43,535 nucleotides of DNA from an uncultured archaeon (GCA_938083505.1 CALKCF010000008.1:1-43535), one strand, 5' to 3'; numbered from the stretch's first letter, positions 5,857-17,092 are shown. Translations and numbers: made by a program. The notes: generated by a model not told the origin, from the letters alone.

Positions 5857-7407
5857 TTAGCAGGCCTCTATAGTGCTCGGAGGCTTCGACGTCGTGGCAT
5901 AAACTACCATCGTCACGTTACCTACCTCATTCACTATTCTTTTTGAGATTCTGTCGAGTAAATCCATGTCTGCTCTATACCAGTCTGCCGTCATTCCGTC
6001 CTCACTTTCAACAGCCCTCACTATGACCACATAACCCTCAGCCCTAGCGTCGCCCATCACACCCGTCCATGAGCTGTCTGTTACTACTGCGAACGCCTGC
6101 CAAACCTTATCGTAGACCCCGGCATTCTTAAACTCCTCCTCGACTATTGCGTTAGCCTCTCTGCATATCCTGAGCTTTTCTTCTGTGACCTCACCGACTA
6201 TTCTGACGGCCAGTCCAGGTCCTGGGAATGGATGACGCGAAACTATCTCTTCAGGTATACCAAGCCTCTTAGCAACCTCCCTAACTTCATCCTTGTAAAG
6301 GTCCTTAAGGGGCTCCACGAGTTTCAACCTTAAACTCGCAGGAAGGCCTGCCACGTTGTGATGCGTTTTGATAAGAGCAGAGCCAGAGCCTGCAGAACCG
6401 CTCTCTATTCTGTCTGGATAAATCGTTCCTTGAGCCAGCCAGCGGACTTTCGGTATCTTCGCAGCCTCTTCTTCAAAAATCTTTGCGAACTCCTCACCAA
6501 TTATTTTCCTTTTCTCTTCCGGGTCTTTTACACCTTTAAGCCTTGACAAGAACCTTTCCGCTGCCTTCACGAAGATGAGGTTGGCTATGCCCATGCGCCT
6601 CAATGTAGCAACAACCTGCTCAGGTTCATCCTTCCTCATCAAACCATGGTCTACAAATATACAGTAGAGTCTCTTGTCAAGTACCCTGTTAAGTAGGACG
6701 GCTGTCGTGACGGAATCGACCCCTCCGCTAACTGCGCAGATCACGGACTCGTCTGGGGGGATTGTCGCGGCTATTTCCCTACTCAACTCCTCGACTCTAT
6801 CCACGGGTTTCCAATCACACCTAAAGCCGCAAACATCCACTAAGAACCTCTTAAGTATACTACTACCCATTTGGGTGTGTTTGACTTCAGGATGGAATTG
6901 GACTCCATAAATTGGTCTTTCGGCATGCTTCATGGCGGCAACCGCGCCTCTCTCAGTAAGCGCCAAGACCTTAAAGCCAGGCGGATGCCTCACCACGGAA
7001 TCCATGTGGCTCATCCATCCGATGAACTGATCAGGAACGTCCATTAACAGAACGTCCCGCTCAACGACCATGACACACGTCCTGCCGTACTCCATGATTG
7101 TCCCGCGCTTAAGCTCTCCATTAAAAGCCATCGCGATGAGTTGATGGCCATAACATATACCGAGCATAGGCACCTGAACGTTCAATAAATCCTCAGCCGA
7201 AAACTTTGGAGCGTTGGGCTCGTCGACGCTCCGAGGGGCTCCCGACAGGATGATGCCAAGTGTCTCATAATCTTCAGAAAAAATTTCCTCGGGAAACTTC
7301 GTGAAGGGCACTATTTCAGAGTACACGCCAAGCTCCCTGCACCTTCTGGCTATCAGATGTGTATACTGTCCGCCGAAGTCCACTATAGCTACCCTCTGTG
7401 ACCTCAT
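5857..7407 (-). CDS. guaA: GMP synthase (glutamine-hydrolysing), fused GATase + ATPPase
   Basis: DFGGQY, GICYGHQ, QFHPEV, SGGVDS, IKTHHNV, RHPFPGPGL, SKPPSTIE. Confidence 0.97.
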   Translation of the reverse strand: MRSQRVAIVDFGGQYTHLIARRCRELGVYSEIVPFTKFPEEIFSEDYETLGIILSGAPRSVDEPNAPKFSAEDLLNVQVPMLGICYGHQLIAMAFNGELKRGTIMEYGRTCVMVVERDVLLMDVPDQFIGWMSHMDSVVRHPPGFKVLALTERGAVAAMKHAERPIYGVQFHPEVKHTQMGSSILKRFLVDVCGFRCDWKPVDRVEELSREIAATIPPDESVICAVSGGVDSVTTAVLLNRVLDKRLYCIFVDHGLMRKDEPEQVVATLRRMGIANLIFVKAAERFLSRLKGVKDPEEKRKIIGEEFAKIFEEEAAKIPKVRWLAQGTIYPDRIESGSAGSGSALIKTHHNVAGLPASLRLKLVEPLKDLYKDEVREVAKRLGIPEEIVSRHPFPGPGLAVRIVGEVTEEKLRICREANAIVEEEFKNAGVYDKVWQAFAVVTDSSWTGVMGDARAEGYVVIVRAVESEDGMTADWYRADMDLLDRISKRIVNEVGNVTMVVYATTSKPPSTIEAC

Positions 7408-7575
7408 ACCCTACCCGTACTCAACTAAAGCATCGAATTAAAGCTGTCTATTGCCGTAATACTAAACGATTAGATGGAGTTCCTAGAAAATTTTCACAAA
7501 GTGGACATAGGCTATGCTATTTAGGCTAAATTTTAAGAACACCCAAATGTGTTTAAAACTTGTCAGACTTTGGAT

Positions 7576-7648
7576 GGGCCGGTGGTCTAGCGGCTATGAC
7601 GCTGCCCTTACGAGGCAGAGGTCGTGGGTTCGAGTCCCACCCGGCCCA
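7576..7648 (+). tRNA. tRNA-Val(TAC), intronless
   Basis: GGGCCGG/CCGGCCC acceptor, CTGCC-CTTACGA-GGCAG anticodon arm, GTGGG-TTCGAGT-CCCAC T arm. Confidence 0.97.
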
Positions 7649-7712
7649 CCTAAAATTTTTAAAATAATTTTTTTAAGTAAGTAAATGCATTAACTCTATA
7701 AATTATAACGAG

Positions 7713-9071
7713 GTGATATTTATTCCAGCGGTTAGTGGAGGTTCACAAAGCATAAATGAGAAAGTCGAGCTTATACACATAAAAGATCTGAAACCCGCAG
7801 TCTATATGGACATTAGAGAAGTGCTGTCGTCTTATACAAAAATATTAAGCACTGATATGGTGAACCGCCCGGTGGTTGTGGATGAAAACACTAAAGTGGT
7901 TCTTGAGGGGTATGAAACCTTCTATGCATTGGATCTTCTTTCAGTTGAAAAAATCCCCGTCATAAAAGTCAACCTATATAACATAAAGCTAATATCCCTG
8001 CAACCTAACCTAAACCCGGTAACTGCAAAGTCCATAATAGATGCTGGAGTCAAGGGGCCTAAACTGCCACCAAAAAGTTTCAAAGTTTTAGTTGAAATCC
8101 CTGAGATCAATGTTTCCTTAAAGGATTTGCTTCCATCGCCGGAAAAGGACGTTCGTGTTCTAAAGGTTTACAATAGCGTTTTGGAGCTACTCTATAAGGG
8201 CTGGCCTACGCCCCTGGTTAAGCTGAATTCTTTGTCAAACGATAAACGAAGTGTTTGGGCTAAGCTTGAAGGGTATAACCCGCTTAGCAACAGCGTAAAG
8301 GACAGGATAGGCTGGTCAATGCTCATGGACGCTTTAGATCGAGGAGAGTTAATGGAGATACTCTACGAGGCCACATCCACAAACACTGGAATAGCCCTAA
8401 CATCCATAGCTAACACCTTAGGGATTAAAGCTAAGCTTTTCATACCAAAGACTATTCAGAAGGTAAGCGACATCTACCTAAAGGTTTTAGGCGCAGAGAT
8501 TGTTAGACTTCCTGTAGGGTTGACGGTTGAGGCTATAGACCAAGTGAACTCCGAGGCAAAAGAACATAAGGCTATGCATCTGAATCAGTTTGAAAACGAC
8601 GCCAACCTTAAGGTCCACTTGAAATACACAGCCAAAGAGCTCGATGAGCAGCTTCTAAGTGTAGGATTAAAGCCCACTGTTATAATTGGTGGTTTAGGCA
8701 CCTCAGGCCACATGAGTGCCATATCTATCTACTTCAAGAACAAGTATGGAGATAGTGTGAAGATTGTTGGGGTTCAACCAGCACCAAACGAGGTGATCCC
8801 CGGAATAAGGAGAATAGAGACGGGAATGAAATGGTTCCATTGGACATCCTTCGACGAGATTGTAGATGTTACACAAAGGGAGGCAGTAGAAGCTGCCATC
8901 AACATTGCAAGGAGTGAGGGGCTACTAATAGGGTTAAGTGCCGGTGCCGTTGTACATGCATTCACCAAAATCTCACGTGACGGGGGTGTATACGTCCTAG
9001 TATTTCCCGACACAGGCTATAAGTACGCGGAACAATTTGAAAACTACTTTGCAAATCTTCAAAAAAAGTAG
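7713..9071 (+). CDS. cysM: PLP-dependent cysteine synthase (O-phosphoserine sulfhydrylase type) with N-terminal Ubl tail and degenerate ParB/SerK-like domain
   Basis: PTPLV, NP..SVKDR (PLP Lys), ATSTNTG, NQFEND, GLGTSGHM, IPGIRRIETG, PDTGYKY; about 140 extra N-terminal residues; true start uncertain. Confidence 0.88.
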   Translation: MIFIPAVSGGSQSINEKVELIHIKDLKPAVYMDIREVLSSYTKILSTDMVNRPVVVDENTKVVLEGYETFYALDLLSVEKIPVIKVNLYNIKLISLQPNLNPVTAKSIIDAGVKGPKLPPKSFKVLVEIPEINVSLKDLLPSPEKDVRVLKVYNSVLELLYKGWPTPLVKLNSLSNDKRSVWAKLEGYNPLSNSVKDRIGWSMLMDALDRGELMEILYEATSTNTGIALTSIANTLGIKAKLFIPKTIQKVSDIYLKVLGAEIVRLPVGLTVEAIDQVNSEAKEHKAMHLNQFENDANLKVHLKYTAKELDEQLLSVGLKPTVIIGGLGTSGHMSAISIYFKNKYGDSVKIVGVQPAPNEVIPGIRRIETGMKWFHWTSFDEIVDVTQREAVEAAINIARSEGLLIGLSAGAVVHAFTKISRDGGVYVLVFPDTGYKYAEQFENYFANLQKK

Positions 9072-9086
9072 AAGGGGAAAAGTGCA

Positions 9087-10133
9087 TTGAACGTTGATAT
9101 ACCCTTCGACCCCCAAATCTTTTATAGCAGACAAATAGTTCTCCGAGAGCTTGGACCACAAGGACAGAAAAAGCTAAAACAGTCCAGGGTTGCGATCATC
9201 GGAGTAGGCGGGCTCGGCAGCGTATCAGCACTTTACCTTGCCTTGGCAGGCGTGGGCTTCTTGAGGCTCATAGATCAAGACACTGTCGAGTTACATAACT
9301 TACATCGACAAGTTTTATATTCTCTGGAAAACCTTCGATATCCTAAGGTTGAGGCAGCCGCAAAAAGGATAAGGGACCTAAATCCGAACGTGGAAGTGGA
9401 GCCTATTCCGGAAAACATCCGAACAGACAATGTCGAAGAGTTGATTAAGGATGTGGACGTGGTTGTTGACGGATTGGACAACATAAGGACACGATACCTT
9501 CTCAATCGTGCGTGCGCTAAACATCGCATACCATACGTTTTCGGAGCGGCAATAGGTTTGGAGGGGAACCTATCAGTTTTTGCTCCACCTGAAACACCAT
9601 GTCTCGAATGTGTGTTCCCAAATTTCAAAGACGAAGAATTGCCGACATGTGACGTTAGAGGCGTACTTGGTTCAACAACAGGGATAATCGGCACCTTACA
9701 AGCCATGGAAACTATTAAGCTTCTAGCAAACATCGGCGAAACCTTGAAAGGTAAATTGCTTGTTTGCGATTTCGAAAACATGTATTTCGTCAAGTTAGAC
9801 ATCCCCAAGAGGTCGGACTGTCCTGTTTGTCAAGGTGTGACGACTGAAAAGTCACACATCAGTGAGCGACTGGCATGGTTATGCGGCCATAAAACCGTCA
9901 ACATTAATCCTTCCCGCCCTATGCTTCTTGATCTAGAAAGAATCTATGAAAAACTAGAAAAACGCTTTAAAATACTACTAAAGTCCTCCTTAGCCATAGT
10001 GTTTGAATTTTACGGTGGTGTTGAGGTTAGCTTATTCAAAAATGGAAGGATGCTCATCAAAAACGTTGAGGATGAAGAAAATGCATTAAAAATCTACAAA
10101 AGCATAATGAACGAATTGATAGTAGAGGTTTAA
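9087..10133 (+). CDS. ThiF/MoeB/UbaA-family E1-like adenylyltransferase with C-terminal extension
   Basis: YSRQ, GVGGLG, NLHRQ, DGLDN, CLEC/CPVC Zn motifs, catalytic Cys in TCDVRGV. Confidence 0.93.
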   Translation: MNVDIPFDPQIFYSRQIVLRELGPQGQKKLKQSRVAIIGVGGLGSVSALYLALAGVGFLRLIDQDTVELHNLHRQVLYSLENLRYPKVEAAAKRIRDLNPNVEVEPIPENIRTDNVEELIKDVDVVVDGLDNIRTRYLLNRACAKHRIPYVFGAAIGLEGNLSVFAPPETPCLECVFPNFKDEELPTCDVRGVLGSTTGIIGTLQAMETIKLLANIGETLKGKLLVCDFENMYFVKLDIPKRSDCPVCQGVTTEKSHISERLAWLCGHKTVNINPSRPMLLDLERIYEKLEKRFKILLKSSLAIVFEFYGGVEVSLFKNGRMLIKNVEDEENALKIYKSIMNELIVEV

Positions 10134-10199
10134 CGCATTTTCTGAACAATTTTTAAGGTAGTTTTTGTTTAATTCTTACCTTAGTAATGAAAGAATTTC

Positions 10200-10364
10200 C
10201 AATCCTAAAACGCGGGTTAATGGAGTACCCTCCAACTACCTTCCTTGTATGAAAACATTCATGACGGCTTTTCTCTTTCGTTTACTTTGCCGACCAAAAT
10301 TCCGCAAGCTTCAATTTAAACCTAAACATACCGTCTAAAGCTTCTTCTTAATCTTCAAGATCAT
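10200..10364 (-). pseudogene. Relic of a JAMM/MPN+ (M67, Mec-like) metallo-isopeptidase
   Basis: GGAGGT RBS then ATG (10364) MILKIKK, frameshifted LDGMFR, then IEACGILVGKV (EACGILVG at 10289-10312); stops and frameshifts; no intact HxH motif. Confidence 0.65.
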
Positions 10365-10400
10365 AAACTACCTCCAAACCCCAAACATGATGTACCAATT

Positions 10401-10478
10401 TTAATTTAACGTTGCTGTGTCTGCACAAATATCTGCAGCTTGTTCTATAAATTCTATCAAATCATTTGCTTTCTTAGG
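10401..10478 (-). pseudogene. Short relic resembling the C-terminus of a DUF47/PhoU-like protein
   Basis: Reverse frame reads NDLIEFIEQAADICADTA; short, motif recognition only. Confidence 0.4.
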
Positions 10479-10747
10479 TTATGCTTGTCGGCAATCACGA
10501 CGGACATTATACATAATGTATTAAAAAATGAAGACAGTCCGGTATTTTCTTGAAATAATCACGAACTCCTTGCTGATACCGACTGCTGTTGAACGTGTGC
10601 AAGTTTTCAACGAATTTCTTGCTAATTTTTCAGAAAATGTCATACTCTTTTCCTATATTAAATAATCGATGTGTGGCGCACGCCCTCCTCCCCCTGTGCG
10701 CGTATAATGTAAAACAGACGTGTTAGTTGTCGAGTTTATCAATACGT

Positions 10748-12670
10748 TTAGAGTTCTGCGAATATTTCGTTTATTGTTGCTGTGGCCACACACACATATG
10801 TGTCGGCAGCGCCATAGTATAGGAATATTCTATTATCTCGAACAACAGCTCCACATGGGAAGACGACATTTTTTACGTATCCCTCTCTTTCGTAAGATGC
10901 TTCTGGAGACAGAAGCGTCGTGGTTGTTCTGGCTATAACCTTCTCCGGTTTCTTAAGGTCTAAAAGTGCTGCGCCAACATGATAGAAGTTATCGTGGGAG
11001 ACACCATGATAGAAGATTAACCAACCCTTTTCTGTCCTGATTGGCGGTGTAGCCAAACCCACTTTCTTCCCATCCCACATTCCAACCCTTGATGCAAGCA
11101 AGCTGTGTGAGACAAGCATCGTCGGATCAACGGTCTCCAATGAGTCAATGTAATCGTAGGTTACGTTTATGCCGCCAGCTCTGTGTATGTAGAAATACTT
11201 CCCGTTTATGGGCTCTGGTATGATGCATGCATTTTTATCGTCTATGCCAGGCGGAGAGATTATCTTGGGCCTTGACCACTTCCAGTCCCGATTAAGGAAG
11301 TCATTTATCTTGATGGAAGTCACAGCAACCTTTGGCGGGTTAACGTTGTCGTAGGCAGTATAGAACATGTAAAGCTTATCTCCGACTTTCACGATTCTTG
11401 GGTCTTCGCATCCTGAATGGCCTGGTGTAGCCTTTCTCTCAAAAGGCTCCCTCGGAACATAAATTGGCTCATCTAAAATTTCTTCAATTGTGAAACCGTC
11501 GCTGGTTATTGCCAGACCTATCGTGGAAGTTTTATCCTGCGAGAGGGCTCTAAAGAGTATATAGATCTGGTCTTCAAGTTCTATAGCAGCCGGATTGAAG
11601 GTTGCGATGCTCCGCCACTCAAAGCGCCTGTCAGGCGAGATTATAGGGTTTTTAGCATACCTTTTAAATACCGATTTCAGACCACTTTTGAGAATTCTCT
11701 TGATGTGGCTCAATCTTGCTGTGGCTAAGCAACAGACGGTGTCGGCAGCCCCATAATAAAGCCTTATCCAGTCCTTATGCCTTATGACCGAGGATGGGAA
11801 GACAACCTTTGGGATGTGACCGTAAACCTCGTACACCTCTTCGGGAACCATAAAGGGATAATGGGTTTTGGCTATAATTCTACGCGGATCATCAAGGTCA
11901 AGGAGCAGAGCTTCAACACCGAAAACTCTTTCCGTGGGCGATTCTGAAAAATAGTTTTGGATGTAAGAGTATATGAGGAGCCAGCCCTCTTCTACTTCTA
12001 TAGGTGGAGCACCGACTTCAATATGATCCCTCGGCGATCGTCTAGGATCGGGTCTCAACGTCCAGCTCATAAATTCCCTATACCACTCCTCCATCTCAGT
12101 GTACCAGAGCGATGGGTCATCGCCAAGTTGGGCTACGCATATGTAGGCCGGCGGCCTGTCTGTGTGAACTGTCAGAATCGCCGTAAGCTTTCCGTTTATT
12201 CGTTTTGGGAAAAGCGCCATAGCCTTCGCGTTAAAAGGTGTGACAAGATATTTTCCCTCAATCTTTTCTAGATCCCTGCTCACGGCAACTCCAACCCTTA
12301 TCCCTTCGGCCTTAGGTGGCAGGCTGGATATCGCCGTGTAGAAAATGTAGTACTTTCCATCTATGTACGTCACTCGAGGATCCTCGCATCCGAATCTTTC
12401 CCATTCCATTTCCGGGTATATGAAGCATCGTCGTTCACCGAAGTGCACACCGTCTTTGCTTACGGCAATCCCTATTGAGCTGAAGCTTGACCCTTGCTTC
12501 TTCAGGAGGTCAGAAGAAGAAATTGCACGGTAAAGCATATAATACTTGCCGCCTCTCTGAATAACCGCCGGATTGAATGTGGCGTATGCCTCCCACGAGT
12601 TCTCTCTTACAGGAAGCAGGATCGGATTCTCATCACTACGACTAATCATAATGATTGCCTTAAATTTCAT
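10748..12670 (-). CDS. GH130-family glycoside phosphorylase/hydrolase with two tandem propeller domains
   Basis: Two copies of NP.I.P...FNPA...L.RA...GCEDPR...VVFP...YYGAADT. Confidence 0.9.
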   Translation of the reverse strand: MKFKAIIMISRSDENPILLPVRENSWEAYATFNPAVIQRGGKYYMLYRAISSSDLLKKQGSSFSSIGIAVSKDGVHFGERRCFIYPEMEWERFGCEDPRVTYIDGKYYIFYTAISSLPPKAEGIRVGVAVSRDLEKIEGKYLVTPFNAKAMALFPKRINGKLTAILTVHTDRPPAYICVAQLGDDPSLWYTEMEEWYREFMSWTLRPDPRRSPRDHIEVGAPPIEVEEGWLLIYSYIQNYFSESPTERVFGVEALLLDLDDPRRIIAKTHYPFMVPEEVYEVYGHIPKVVFPSSVIRHKDWIRLYYGAADTVCCLATARLSHIKRILKSGLKSVFKRYAKNPIISPDRRFEWRSIATFNPAAIELEDQIYILFRALSQDKTSTIGLAITSDGFTIEEILDEPIYVPREPFERKATPGHSGCEDPRIVKVGDKLYMFYTAYDNVNPPKVAVTSIKINDFLNRDWKWSRPKIISPPGIDDKNACIIPEPINGKYFYIHRAGGINVTYDYIDSLETVDPTMLVSHSLLASRVGMWDGKKVGLATPPIRTEKGWLIFYHGVSHDNFYHVGAALLDLKKPEKVIARTTTTLLSPEASYEREGYVKNVVFPCGAVVRDNRIFLYYGAADTYVCVATATINEIFAEL

Positions 12671-12685
12671 TAACTATTCAAACAT

Positions 12686-13750
12686 TTAAACATAATTTCT
12701 CCGCTCCCTCAGTAAAAGTTCAACAAGCTCTGTTATATTTCCTCTTGCAACGCAAACGTAGTTATCTGCAGCTCCATAGTAAACCAGTAGATCGTCATCT
12801 TTTACAACGGCACCAGTTACGTATATCACGCCAGGCTTGAATCCTTCATGCTCGTATTTCTCCGTAGGCTCCAGCACAGGATACTTACTTACAGCTATGA
12901 TTTGTCTTGGATCCTGCAGATCCAAAAGCATCATGCCCACTTTATATTTGCCGGGCTCCTTGGTATCTGCCGCATGGTAGAGGAGAAACCATCCCTCCGC
13001 GGTTTCTAGGGGTGGAGCTGCCACCCCCCTCACATACCCTTCCCAGAAATGTCTCCAAAGGATGCGGCCTTCATCGAAGATGCTCCGTATATAAAAGCCC
13101 TCAGCAACCTCAAGGGAGTCGAGAAACTCAATCTGTAAAGTCGGTGACAGACTATGTAGGATCGCATACTTACCCTTGAACTTTTTAGGAAACAAAACCC
13201 AGTTTTTGTGAGATTCCCCTGGAGGTGAAATAATCCTAGGCTTAGCCCAACGCCACCTTTTATCGAGGAAGTCCTCAACGCTTATTGAGGTTAAAGCCAC
13301 TCCTAGATTTAAACCGTCATAAGCCGCATACAGCATATAAAGCATACCTTCGTCCTCTACGTGAACAATTCTGGGATCCTCGGCGCCTATAAACGAGCCG
13401 CCTGAGGCGCTCATCAACGGACAAAACATGTTTTCAACCCTATGCTCGTAAACAGGATAGTCGAGTCGTTTGATAATTTCAAAACCATCAACGCTCGAAG
13501 CATAACCTAATCGTGAAACCAGATCATCACCGATAGCCCTATATAAAAGGTGAACCCTACCATCAACATAGACCGCTCCAGGATTAAACGTCTGTCTGCT
13601 CTCCCACCAGAAACCCTCTCTAGGTGAAATTATAGGGTTAAAAGAATACTTCTTAAAGATCTGCAAAAAACCAGCGGAACTACATCCAAGCATACTGTCC
13701 CTACAAACATTAATTAAAACAAAAGGTAAATATAAACCGATATTTGTCAT
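12686..13750 (-). CDS. GH130-family glycosidase, single domain
   Basis: NPIISP, TFNPGA, LYRA, AEDPR, KNWVLFP, YYGAAD; start likely downstream of 13750. Confidence 0.88.
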   Translation of the reverse strand: MTNIGLYLPFVLINVCRDSMLGCSSAGFLQIFKKYSFNPIISPREGFWWESRQTFNPGAVYVDGRVHLLYRAIGDDLVSRLGYASSVDGFEIIKRLDYPVYEHRVENMFCPLMSASGGSFIGAEDPRIVHVEDEGMLYMLYAAYDGLNLGVALTSISVEDFLDKRWRWAKPRIISPPGESHKNWVLFPKKFKGKYAILHSLSPTLQIEFLDSLEVAEGFYIRSIFDEGRILWRHFWEGYVRGVAAPPLETAEGWFLLYHAADTKEPGKYKVGMMLLDLQDPRQIIAVSKYPVLEPTEKYEHEGFKPGVIYVTGAVVKDDDLLVYYGAADNYVCVARGNITELVELLLRERRNYV

Positions 13751-13799
13751 TTATAATTTTAGCAAAATTACGGACAAGAGTATTTAGGATGTAGAGGGG

Positions 13800-14310
13800 C
13801 ACTCAAATCTACTATCTAACATTCTGCATTTTTCAGCTGATCCTTTGTTTATAGTGTTAACCTTTGAAGAAGCTCCCATGAAACGTTAAGACTTTACTTT
13901 AAAATTTCATCAAAAATTTCTTCGGCTCTTCTTAGGTTTAACGTGAGGGTGTCATCGACAAACTCCATGTTTTTAATTTTTGAACTCATCGTGCATAAGC
14001 TTGATTTCTCTAACAACATTTTTTGAGACTTCTATCACAGCAATATTCTCCAAAAAGGTGTGAAGGGTGCAAAAAGAGCATTTAAACGGGCATCCTATGC
14101 TGGTGATTATCGGCACGTGACTGATGCCTTGAAACATATATTTCTCTATAGAAAGTAGGTTAAGACTTGGAACTGGAGGTTATACCTCTAATGTCCTCTA
14201 GGCAGATCTCATGATCTATTTGTATTAATAAGTTCCTTGAAGATCTCCTTGGACAACAACGCTTATGCTTCTGCATTCGCCCAAGAGGACTTCCTCCAAG
14301 AAGAGGCACT
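13800..14310 (-). pseudogene. B12-binding radical SAM protein pseudogene
   Basis: Fragments in several frames: EEVLLGECRSISVVVQG, FKELI...EDIRGIT, PIITSIGCPFKCSFC (CxxxCxxC), KNVVREIK, EFVDDTLTLN...EIFDEIL; stops and frameshifts. Confidence 0.8.
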
Positions 14311-14449
14311 TCAAATCCTAATCATATATGGAGGCATAGATGAGTTAGTTTCAGTAGAGTTATGCTCTGAAACCTTGCTTACAGCTCTAGCTTTATCTTT
14401 ATAGAGTTAAATAGTGGTTTAAACACTTTCATTATCTTAGTGAAATTAT

Positions 14450-14830
14450 ATGGTTGAAAAAAAGCGACCTAGATTTATAATGTGTTTCTGCACTGGTGAA
14501 TGCCCCGGATTTGCAAAGTTGGAATTATGGAAGTTTATCAACTTTGTTAGAAAAGAACTTGACGTAGAATATGCCATCATCCATCCACAACTATGTGTTG
14601 ATGACGGGGACCGCTTTTTGAAGGATTATCTTAAAGCAGGTGATAATAACGTAACTTATATTATTGGTGGATGCGATCCTAAAATGCAGAGGAAGATGTT
14701 CAAGGATGCTTTTGCCGAGAAAGGTTTAGAATTTGATAAACAGGTAATTTCGCTGGATTTGAGAAACTTGGAAACTTCAGAGGCCATGAAGAAAGTTGAA
14801 GAAGTTGTTAACAAGTTGATGGCACAGTAA
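14450..14830 (+). CDS. Stand-alone HdrA N-terminal-like domain protein
   Basis: CFCTGEC, HPQLC, IIGGCDP...F, LDLRN match the Cys pattern of the HdrA N-terminal domain. Confidence 0.7.
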   Translation: MVEKKRPRFIMCFCTGECPGFAKLELWKFINFVRKELDVEYAIIHPQLCVDDGDRFLKDYLKAGDNNVTYIIGGCDPKMQRKMFKDAFAEKGLEFDKQVISLDLRNLETSEAMKKVEEVVNKLMAQ

Positions 14831-15169
14831 ATGGAGGAGGAGTCCTTGGCTTCTGAGAGTTCTCTAAATAATTCGGCGAAAAGTGAAAAACGTATCTTAA
14901 TTCCACGTGAAGAAATTCCATGGTTTCCTACAATTGATTATGAGAAATGCACTGGATGCCTTACATGTGTTAGGATCGATAAAGAGACCGGTCATGACGT
15001 CTTCGAGGTTGAGGGAAATACACCTCGTCCGGTGGTAAAGAATCCTTTTTCATGTGTTGTTGGATGCCAAACATGCGCAAAAATGTGTCCAAACAATGCA
15101 ATAACATTCCCATCAATAGATGAGTTAAGGAAGATTCTGAAAGAATTAAGACTGAAGTACTCTCAATAA
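14831..15169 (+). CDS. 4Fe-4S dicluster ferredoxin family protein
   Basis: WFPTIDYEKCTGCLTC and CVVGCQTCAKMCP. Confidence 0.88.
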   Translation: MEEESLASESSLNNSAKSEKRILIPREEIPWFPTIDYEKCTGCLTCVRIDKETGHDVFEVEGNTPRPVVKNPFSCVVGCQTCAKMCPNNAITFPSIDELRKILKELRLKYSQ

Positions 15170-15295
15170 ATTTATACTCCTTAACTTATATAAAGTTTTA
15201 GAAATTAAGAGTAAGAAAAATATGACAGGCTCCTTGGCTCAAAAAGGCATAGGGTTTCTATAATGTCAATATTAATAAGTCATAATACCAGTCGC

Positions 15296-15712
15296 TTATA
15301 GTTTTGCTTCTTTAATTATCATTTCTGCTATTTTCTTTACGTCCGCCTCATAAATGTCGAGGGTTGGCATCTTCTGCAGATATTTTGATACGTCAATTTC
15401 GTAGTCTATTCTTTTTTCAGCCTTCTCCAAGACTTTTGAAGCGCACCTCTTTCCACACCCGTTTATGACAATATTCTTTTTTGCTTTTTCCGCAATTTCC
15501 AAGTGCGGCTTTGAGCCAGCTGCAATAGCTACTATGCAGCACATCCTACCCTTATCTAATTTGGTGAGTAGAACGCCCGCAGCATGCCCTATCTGTCCGA
15601 CATTGGCTGCTCCATCACATATCCAAATCATGTTTTCATGCTCGGCAACCTCATAGCATAATGGAAGAATTTTGGGCTGAAACGTCACACCTATTTCTCC
15701 TTTCTTTGACAT
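15296..15712 (-). CDS. DGC-domain putative zinc-binding protein
   Basis: CDGAANVGQ, MCC, INGC..RCASK. Confidence 0.8.
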   Translation of the reverse strand: MSKKGEIGVTFQPKILPLCYEVAEHENMIWICDGAANVGQIGHAAGVLLTKLDKGRMCCIVAIAAGSKPHLEIAEKAKKNIVINGCGKRCASKVLEKAEKRIDYEIDVSKYLQKMPTLDIYEADVKKIAEMIIKEAKL

Positions 15713-15789
15713 TTATATATTTCACCTTCCTAAGCTATTCCTTCAATAACTAAATAAAATTAAAGACTTAATTCGTAATAATTTTAATA

Positions 15790-16520
15790 CTCTTTGTTTT
15801 TGCAGGAATCCTAGGAGGATTCTTGGGAACTGGTAGATGTGTTGTAATGCTTCTAGCCTTATACTTTCTCTCCAACTATAACTTGCCCGTAATCATCGAT
15901 ACGACAATCACTACCATCATTATAACAGCAGCATCAGGTTCGGTAGCTCACATAAAGATAAGAAATGTAGACTATAGAACTGCAACACTCATAACCATAT
16001 CAGGTGTGTTGCTCGGTTCGATTACTTTTCAATATCTAGTGGAACAATTGTAATTGCTAAAGATCATCTTAGGAGCGGCATTCCTCTACGTTCCTCTAAG
16101 GATGATATATAAAGGTTCTAGAAGAAGTGTGGAAGCAAAAACTGGAAATATCGTTCCTGGAGGCGCTTTAGCTAAGTCATCAATAGGGTTCGTTATAGGG
16201 GTATTAACGGGTATCATTAGTCTAGGAGGTGGTTATGCGTTAGTTCTTTCGATGATATGCCTTCTCGGAGCACCTGTTAAGATAACCATAGGAACGTCTT
16301 TAGCTTCATTCATAAGCATGACGCTCATTTCGGGAGCTTTCAAGATATACCAAGGATTGGTAGATGTTATTGTTGCATTATCGCTTGGAGCCGGAATGGC
16401 AATAGGAGCACAAATAGGTTCAAGACTTGTACCAAGGGTTCCAGCTTCATATATAAGATTGTCTTCATATACGTTTCTCTAAAGTTTATCTTAGGTGTTT
16501 TCGGAATAAACATATAACTA
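15790..16520 (+). pseudogene. TauE/SafE sulfite-exporter family pseudogene
   Basis: GILGGFLGTG, VDYR, G..TG...LGGG, AIGAQIGS; in-frame TAA at 16051-16053, no clear start, apparent 3' frameshift. Confidence 0.78.
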
Positions 16521-16561: not shown

Positions 16562-17092
16562 CTAGGCGAGACGTATCACCTTCTTTTCTCTTGCTGATGG
16601 TACCACCTTGATCTTCGCATTCTCGAACTTTATGAAGAACTCATGATGTTGCTGGAGCCAGTCAAGAAAGACTGCGAGTGCCGCAACTTCAGATATTGGT
16701 TGGTTCGTCACGGAGACGTTCCACGTTGCCATCTCGTAAACTTTCTTCGGCACCTTCTCAGAACCTACGATTATTAGTTTATCCTTGTTGGATAACCTTA
16801 TCTCCTCGATGACCTCGGGTAGCGGAAGTCCGTACATGGTCAGGTGCACCACTTCTCCTCCAGATTCAAACCACTCTTTTATGACGTTCATCCAATCTCG
16901 TCTCATATCAACGAAGAACTTGCCGCCGAATCTCTGCACAACATCTTCCACGGACCTTTTTACTCCTTCATCAGGCTGTCCTGATATGATGACGCCGTCG
17001 CAACCAAAAGCCCTAGCAGTAAGGCAAACGTGTGTCGTAACTCTTTCGTCCCTATGTATCCTATGACCCAGTCTCAGAACAACCAATTTCAT
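16562..17092 (-). CDS. trm56: tRNA (cytidine56-2'-O)-methyltransferase aTrm56
   Basis: VLRLGHR..RD.RVTTHV.LTARAFG, VHLTMYG, VTNQP.SEV. Confidence 0.95.
   Translation of the reverse strand: MKLVVLRLGHRIHRDERVTTHVCLTARAFGCDGVIISGQPDEGVKRSVEDVVQRFGGKFFVDMRRDWMNVIKEWFESGGEVVHLTMYGLPLPEVIEEIRLSNKDKLIIVGSEKVPKKVYEMATWNVSVTNQPISEVAALAVFLDWLQQHHEFFIKFENAKIKVVPSAREKKVIRLA

Follow-up and report, generated by a model that had tools for sequence, protein, structure and literature searches.

Several proteins in which a sulfur carrier is fused to a partner enzyme have been described. MoaX of Mycobacterium tuberculosis, a MoaD-MoaE fusion, is cleaved after the Gly-Gly of its carrier part (PMC4326299), and the MoaD-MoaE protein of Deinococcus radiodurans is cut by DRJAMM (PMC8832034). 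Operons combining ThiS/MoaD, JAB, E1 and cysteine synthase genes were catalogued by Iyer, Burroughs and Aravind in 2006 (PMC1779556, Table 1 rows 4c/4d); that survey lists ThiS-ThiG, MoaD-MoaE, ThiS-sulfite reductase and ubiquitin-like (Ubl)-ThiF fusions and no carrier-cysteine synthase fusion. Thiocarboxylate-dependent homocysteine synthesis by MetM/MetO is included in GapMind 2026 (PMC13759103, Table 2), and a free serine kinase, SerK, is known from Thermococcus kodakarensis (5X0B; PMC5120207). In the literature searched, no account was found of a single chain joining a CysO-type carrier to an O-phosphoserine sulfhydrylase (OPSS). Here we analysed a stretch of 43,535 nucleotides (nt) from an uncultured archaeon (GCA_938083505.1, CALKCF010000008.1:1-43535; hereafter the window), in which a CysM/OPSS gene for a pyridoxal phosphate (PLP) enzyme lies beside tRNA-Val(TAC) and begins with a short tail resembling the end of such a carrier. 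With a probability of about 0.85, the tail is the scar of an inserted, broken fragment of a foreign sulfur-carrier operon, and it is most likely a translated vestige with no function.

After an in-frame TAA at 7674-7676, the plus-strand frame reads VSKCINSINYNEVIFIPAVSGGSQSINEK and is free of stops up to 9071. At the tail it reads ...NEVIFIPAVSGGSQS, with PAVSGG encoded at 7725-7742. In alignment A1, the window sequence EVIFIPAVSGGS stood in register with DGDEV[LA]FIPAVSGGS, the end of the ThiS domain of eight full-length homologues, and a codon-for-codon match to this domain end was seen in at least 11 homologues. The closest of them, locus L126, was 84% identical in DNA to window positions 7710-7752 (blastn, E 4e-8). 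The homologous stretch consists of the 11 codons at 7710-7742, which encode E-V-I-F-I-P-A-V-S-G-G. Its onset was abrupt at GAG 7710, the break lying between 7709 and 7710. An initial impression of 48% identity upstream of this GAG was rejected, because in ungapped comparisons of the 12-48 nt before it, including the part read as ...INYN, with three homologues (L126, L004 and L006), the similarity was no better than at random positions (null fraction 0.2-0.7). A tblastn search of 7408-7709 with the full fusion protein for further carrier sequence matched only residues 81-95. The preliminary description of this DNA had recognized the likeness to a sulfur-carrier C-terminus, and it was right about the homology, the TAA, the PAVSGG and the adjoining tRNA; of the roughly 22 codons that it counted up to the Gly-Gly, the 11 given above are homologous and the part preceding them is unrelated, AT-rich filler. 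The features of the gene itself are:

7710-7742, plus strand: carrier-domain remnant, the last beta-strand and Gly-Gly tail of a CysO/ThiS-type carrier (alignments A1-A3; blastn to L126; CysO, 3DWG chain C, ends in DGDSVTILPAVAGG)
7713-7715, plus strand: GTG, probable start codon (the only canonical in-frame start; matched by L126 and by a public 452-residue protein)
7713-9071, plus strand: open reading frame (ORF) of 452 amino acids (aa), with the carrier tail (residues 1-10), a degenerate SerK-like domain and an OPSS-type PLP domain (Pfam, PDB matches, Foldseek, hhalign, AlphaFold)

A search with the first 170 residues yielded 66 relatives. The closest ones, of 533-545 aa and 71-84% identical over the shared part, have a complete in-frame Pfam ThiS domain ahead of the enzyme, ending in PAVSGG, and are built of a ThiS/CysO-type carrier, a degenerate serine-kinase-like domain and an OPSS. 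PAVSGG was kept in 12 of the 12 carrier-bearing relatives (as PAVSGS in one), and the fusion family was found mainly in Bathyarchaeia. The best solved relative of the lost carrier is CysO of M. tuberculosis (3DWG chain C, E 6e-12). In a maximum-likelihood tree of the shared region (quick IQ-TREE search, support by the Shimodaira-Hasegawa-like approximate likelihood ratio test, SH-aLRT), the window protein was nested with a support of 99 in a clade of four carrier-fused proteins. The enclosing 18-member clade (support 100), in which the window protein is accompanied by 12 fused and 5 carrier-less proteins, was itself nested among SerK-fused forms. The nesting of the window protein in a carrier-fused clade implies that its ancestor was fused and that the carrier was lost here. 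A Ubl-GG-ParB-CysM polyprotein had been proposed as the ancestor, with most of the Ubl deleted on the spot. The fused ancestor and the loss are borne out by the tree, while the middle domain proved to be SerK-like by hhalign and not ParB proper, and the loss seems to mark where an operon fragment gained by horizontal transfer ends, and so to be more than a local deletion.

Judged from this topology, the carrier is lost at least twice in the family, in the window gene and in the branch of P0028, P0030, P0035 and P0040. That branch has no such tail, and no remnant was found upstream of the P0030-type gene (locus L127). The carrier-less P0059 (458 aa) begins with ...KRVDIPIEAL, the residues with which the SerK-type N-terminal domain closes in the 576-aa forms, and is a second case of an N-terminal domain cut down to a short tail.

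In four independent records, genes for a ThrC-like PLP enzyme, the fusion protein, ThiF and a class-V aminotransferase follow each other in this order, the last with the full Aminotran_5 signature of a cysteine desulfurase. ThiF is encoded immediately 3' of the fusion protein, with a gene for a Prok-JAB protease at a distance of a few kb. No tRNA stands ahead of the fusion gene in these donor-type operons. Since an E1 needs a free carrier C-terminus, the intact fusions are presumably cut after the Gly-Gly, by analogy with MoaX (PMC4326299) and the DRJAMM substrate (PMC8832034). In locus L082, from a contig of Ca. Zestomicrobium tamdykulense, SerK, middle, OPSS and desulfurase parts are scattered over many short ORFs, either because the assembly has many frameshifts or because this copy of the operon has decayed.

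The window gene itself no longer encodes a carrier. No ThiS match was obtained in its ORF, nor on contig C8 in a whole-genome search. A complete beta-grasp domain comprises ~65-100 residues, and 11 homologous codons are left; the Gly-Gly forms residues 9-10 of 452 and not a free C-terminus, with no folded carrier ahead of it for a protease to release. Descent from a carrier is nevertheless indicated by the codon-for-codon alignment with P0001-P0004 and others, together with the nesting in the fused clade. The OPSS-type PLP domain and the SerK-like middle domain that mark the family are both present; the in-frame N-terminal ThiS domain is missing. Because the tail residues would be unable to form the beta-grasp fold and the Gly-Gly would not be a C-terminus, the tail presumably cannot be adenylated or carry sulfur, and is best regarded as a translated vestige.

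The remainder of the protein is well preserved. Pfam recognized PALP only (residues 163-430, nt 8199-9002), and the best match of this PLP domain was the OPSS of Aeropyrum pernix (1WKV, E 3e-60). The PLP lysine K196 and the arginine R366 of the motif IPGIRR aligned with K127 and R297 of 1WKV and were invariant across the family; R297 presumably binds the substrate phosphate. The AlphaFold model had a mean predicted local distance difference test score (pLDDT) of 81, with ~90 in the middle domain and values below 50 for residues 1-15, the tail included. By Foldseek it matched the whole A. pernix chain, N-terminal domain included, with a template modelling (TM) score of 0.84. The middle domain (about residues 16-150, nt 7758-8180) was related by hhalign (98.9%, E 1e-17) to the SerK/SbnI-type domain that heads the 574-590 aa family members, the intact N-terminal copy of which matched SerK 5X0B with E 1e-12. 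Its identity was 55-76% to the seven carrier-fused members aligned, and 42-76% over all 16 rows. The DGEHR motif has become EGYET in the window protein, and with this loss kinase activity of the middle domain is unlikely. Over the 443 columns of the Foldseek match with 6L0P/1WKV, the degenerate SerK-like domain appears to have its counterpart in the N-terminal domain of A. pernix OPSS, and the N-domain of archaeal OPSS in general may be derived from a serine kinase.

GTG 7713 is the sole in-frame ATG, GTG or TTG ahead of the conserved domain, and a public protein collection holds the 452-aa protein with exactly this start. (The 90% cluster of that protein contains only unrelated 55-aa sequences, with MLKVRLIINEGQ... 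as representative, which is a clustering artefact of the database.) L126 reads GAT GAG GTG at this place, and as its valine codon is already GTG, the present start codon of the window gene is probably the former internal valine codon of D-E-V. Upstream of it, the region 7651-7712 has a GC content of 0.145, and the filler holds TATA-like hexamers at -56 to -54, -42, -16 and -10, counted from this GTG. The ancestral GAGGT lies 12 nt 5' of an in-frame ATT at 7722. PAVSGG would be translated whether GTG 7713 or ATT 7722 served as the start.

The surroundings of the gene are as follows:

5857-7407, minus strand: guaA
7576-7650, plus strand: tRNA-Val(TAC), predicted by ARAGORN; the pair of guaA (minus) and tRNA-Val (plus) is kept in all six other genus genomes
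7663-7709, plus strand: AT-rich junction filler, matching neither the genus relatives nor the donor-type operon
9087-10133, plus strand: ThiF-family E1 of 348 aa, no rhodanese domain (Pfam ThiF, E 2e-81; tblastn 80-82% to the donor-type E1)
10166-10243, plus strand: 5' stub of a class-V cysteine desulfurase gene (blastn; tblastn E 0.008; Aminotran_5)
10268-10315, minus strand: inverted scrap of a Prok-JAB (JAMM) gene, codons 23-38 with the motif EACGILVG (blastn and tblastn)
7663-15775, no strand: island absent from this site in the closest relatives, G004 and G002 (synteny and GH130 comparison)

On the left, nucleotide similarity to the genus relatives stopped at 7648-7662, and synteny with G004 and G002 at about 7658; on the right, similarity resumed at 15776 in G004 and at 16572 in G002. 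Homologues of CysM in the six other genus genomes were not close (best ~35%, paralogues), and ThiF was represented in the two genomes tested, G004 and G006, only by paralogues of 40-46% identity. Compared with G041, which carries the fused gene, CysM and ThiF were 81% and 82% identical, yet GuaA and AspRS were only 52% and 56% identical. Within the genus, the identities were 84-89% for GuaA, 88-93% for AtpA and 87-95% for AspRS. The discordance of these identities, together with the absence from the genus, indicates that the CysM-ThiF fragment was acquired horizontally by this lineage. The base composition gave no foreign signal: the GC content of the fragment equals the genome mean, and that at third codon positions is slightly below that of two native genes. 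In 7650-16200, no partial tRNA-Val copy or att-like repeat and no integrase-like ORF was found, so that the island is not a classical integrative element.

The right end of the fragment is decayed. Window positions 10100-10223 matched L126 (5609-5736) with 79% identity (blastn, E 2e-22), a match that extends beyond the stop codon of ThiF to cover 59 nt at the 5' end of the desulfurase gene. The ATG of that gene is missing its A, and three indels fall within these 59 coding nt. The JAMM scrap lies ~45 nt beyond the L126 match, and 29 nt of it were 86% identical to the JAB gene of L126 (E 1e-4; tblastn E 0.003), which are marginal statistics for a gene from the same operon. The island as a whole is a mosaic: besides the foreign CysM-ThiF fragment, it holds three small ORFs and two GH130 genes of native appearance for the genus (71-84% identical to copies elsewhere in genus genomes). 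At its right border, the TauE/SafE-family gene at 15776-16482 is a pseudogene: its start was lost at the junction, its C-terminal end has changed, and its frame is interrupted by a stop at the place of VEQLSLLK in G004.

The region 3' of tRNA-Val was also different in each of G003, G005 and G006, the remaining genus genomes with contigs reaching beyond this tRNA (the contig of G001 ends soon after it), which marks it as an apparent hot spot of rearrangement in the genus. In G003 (locus L039), two genes from the start of our contig (window 1-2265) lie directly 3' of tRNA-Val in inverted orientation. Giant ORFs are found close to the tRNA-Val site, of 2461 aa in G005 and of 2075 aa in G003. A separate observation concerns G014 (contig C20, 1706-4942), where A-type ATPase subunit A was matched in two pieces ~1.4 kb apart within open frames of ~1100 aa, which suggests an intein in the sequence.

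The history that we propose is the following. The ancestral chain would have been a CysO-type carrier ending in Gly-Gly, followed by the degenerate serine-kinase-like domain and the OPSS, encoded in an operon in the order ThrC-like enzyme, fusion gene, ThiF E1 and cysteine desulfurase, with the JAMM protease gene nearby. A fragment of this operon from a distant lineage would have been inserted directly 3' of tRNA-Val. Its left end would lie inside the carrier-coding part and have left the last 11 carrier codons, and its right end would have left the frameshifted desulfurase stub and the JAMM scrap. Translation would now start most likely at GTG 7713, from a promoter in the AT-rich filler, giving a product M-IFIPAVSGG.... 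The remaining protein and the E1 appear to have been kept by selection.

The native cysM-like gene of the genome (contig C3, 199973-200931, minus strand; locus L130) is broken: compared with the intact gene for 326 aa in G004, 2 bp are deleted and 1 bp is inserted. It is the only cysteine-synthase-type PALP gene of the genome besides the window gene. This suggests that the native gene was replaced by the foreign copy, and the window protein is probably the only intact cysteine synthase of the cell. The broken gene adjoins an intact JAMM (Mec+-like) JAB gene (C3, 199447-199869, minus strand). On contig C4, a ThrC-like PLP gene (63115-64338) is followed by a gene for a ThiS-type carrier of 104 aa (64345-64659; positions 217-1440 and 1447-1761 of locus L002). 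This carrier ends in ...DGDEVLILPAIGGG, containing LPAIGGG, plus 11 residues, and the same carrier, encoded in three other genus genomes examined, has extensions of 5-6 residues after the GGG. Given that the extensions vary within the genus, the C4 carrier is, from its sequence, a precursor in need of trimming, and the C4 pair would be MetM/MetO-like. The C4 carrier and the C3 JAB gene are candidate partners in trans for the acquired enzyme; its sulfur donor could be free sulfide or a carrier in trans, for which the native C4 carrier beside the ThrC-like gene would be the best candidate. The idea that the severed carrier half persists elsewhere in the genome was rejected, as the three other ThiS-family genes are all separate genes: a MoaD-like one beside MoeA on C6, one beside an aldehyde:ferredoxin oxidoreductase on C1 and the one on C4. 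The C4 carrier in particular is only 42-45% identical to the lost domain, recurs in the genus and is native.

Several points weigh against the proposed history. Across the genome, TATA-like hexamers are most frequent from -40 to -26 and Shine-Dalgarno-like motifs from -14 to -9. GTG 7713 is not preceded by a Shine-Dalgarno-like motif at the preferred distance, and its nearest TATA-like hexamer, at -42, is just beyond the peak. The start codon and promoter are predictions. The dN/dS values (ratios of non-synonymous to synonymous substitution rates) are pairwise and reflect mostly evolution before the transfer, and the frameshifts of the native cysM could be sequencing errors. Use of a carrier in trans is likewise a prediction, as is the identity of the carrier that is activated by the acquired E1. 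Finally, the left junction is known from this contig alone, none having been found in two exact-pattern scans of public metagenome contigs.

The first alternative is that the whole fragment is a dying relic, in which CysM and ThiF are unexpressed or useless and disabling mutations have yet to accumulate. It would fit the decay on both flanks, the loss of the operon's cognate carrier, desulfurase and protease, the lack of a canonical promoter or Shine-Dalgarno arrangement at GTG 7713, and the small genome (1.15 Mb) with other pseudogenes, namely the native cysM and the TauE gene. We consider it unlikely, because the 2406 coding nt (800 codons) of CysM and ThiF are free of stops and frameshifts, compared with the three indels in the 59 nt of the adjoining stub. 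In addition, their pairwise dN/dS values against L126 (0.15 for CysM and 0.11 for ThiF) are on a par with the 0.14 found for two intact homologues, the catalytic residues show no variation, and the window gene is the sole intact gene of its type in the genome. From these patterns, the truncated CysM and the ThiF are probably still in use.

A second alternative accepts the scar as the origin of the tail and gives it a function, as a tethered mimic of the carrier C-terminal tail or as a regulatory or recruiting peptide. Such a tail might bind the E1 or a JAMM protease, or insert into the active-site channel of the sulfhydrylase; it would then gate the enzyme or help to recruit the native trans carrier machinery, and a domain fragment would have been reused after horizontal transfer. 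In the CysM-CysO complex 3DWG, the carrier C-terminal tail reportedly enters the active site. Ten of the 11 tail residues are identical to those of fused homologues, and 5-6 of the seven nucleotide differences from L004 are synonymous, a substitution pattern that is accounted for by the period in which these codons still belonged to an intact carrier domain. The absence of indels from 33 nt is not significant either (~1.7 expected at the rate of the stub), the carrier-less P0028, P0030 and P0040 have no such tail, and the tail is predicted to be disordered. A function of the retained tail is therefore very unlikely.

An assembly chimera, in which the contig of another organism was joined at or near the conserved tRNA-Val, is hardly to be believed. 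Conserved, repeated tRNA genes can indeed mis-join metagenomic contigs, the closest relatives of the fragment come from a distant lineage, and the left junction lacks independent confirmation. As the donor-type operons have no tRNA before the gene, there is no shared sequence for mis-joining; homology to the genus runs 8-12 nt beyond the tRNA and is followed by 47 nt of unrelated filler. On the right side, the fragment is joined to genus-type GH130 genes, after which the synteny of the genus sets in at 15776; ThiF, a 615-bp spacer and GH130 recur in this arrangement in an independent Logan assembly, and the fragment has the GC content of the genome. Chance resemblance, with GAGGTGA merely a ribosome-binding site and PAVSGG accidental, had been raised as a caveat together with homologues that lack a Ubl or do not conserve PAVSGG; although the spacing of GAGGT to ATT 7722 is at the genome's Shine-Dalgarno-like peak, it is refuted as the origin by alignment A1, the L126 DNA match and the tree, since ThiS is present and PAVSGG conserved in the homologues, the homology is in frame and codon for codon, and the Shine-Dalgarno-like string is ancestral Glu-Val coding sequence, reused at most.

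The tail alone, then, is a scar and not a device, and its interest lies in the family that it reveals and the history that it records. Carrier-OPSS fusions should need JAMM cleavage after the Gly-Gly, which is a prediction on the processing of archaeal ubiquitin-like precursors. The locus would be a clean, datable case of the remodelling of a small archaeal genome by a foreign operon fragment beside a tRNA gene, in which an internal valine codon became a start codon, useless flanks decayed while two genes were kept, and the native cysteine synthase was lost. The pathway of the organism must run on mixed native and foreign parts. For annotators, the caution is that the window's 'pyridoxal-phosphate dependent enzyme' lacks 5' coding sequence when compared with its family.

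Among known systems, CysO/CysM/Mec+/MoeZ of M. tuberculosis is close in its parts. The lost domain is CysO-like with the shared end ...LPAV[AS]GG, the enzyme is a CysM/OPSS-type PLP enzyme with an E1 after it, and the ancestral operon had a JAMM protease. Unlike in that system, the carrier of the relatives is fused to the enzyme via the degenerate SerK-like domain and must be cut out, and in the window the E1 has no rhodanese domain, and of the carrier and the protease only 11 residues and a scrap, respectively, are left. The OPSS of A. pernix (1WKV, 3VSC, 6L0P) is the best match of the window protein in both sequence and structure; it has no known carrier fusion, whereas the window protein has a vestigial tail and adjoins an E1. 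The full-length relatives resemble MoaX and the DRJAMM substrate in having the carrier N-terminal to the partner enzyme with an internal Gly-Gly, and differ in the partner enzyme and the pathway; the window protein has nothing left to cleave. The operons surveyed earlier (PMC1779556) have the same set of components as the ancestral operon, to which the archaeal one adds the ThrC-like enzyme and the cysteine desulfurase. A ThrC-like PLP enzyme directly before a carrier, as found in the donor-type operons and in the native C4 pair, would recall MetM/MetO; the C4 carrier differs in being extended by 5-11 residues after the GGG in the four genus genomes examined. Lastly, with respect to SerK/SbnI, the N-terminal domain of the 574-590 aa members is SerK-like, and the window protein has a diverged version of this domain as its middle part, with EGYET in the place of DGEHR.

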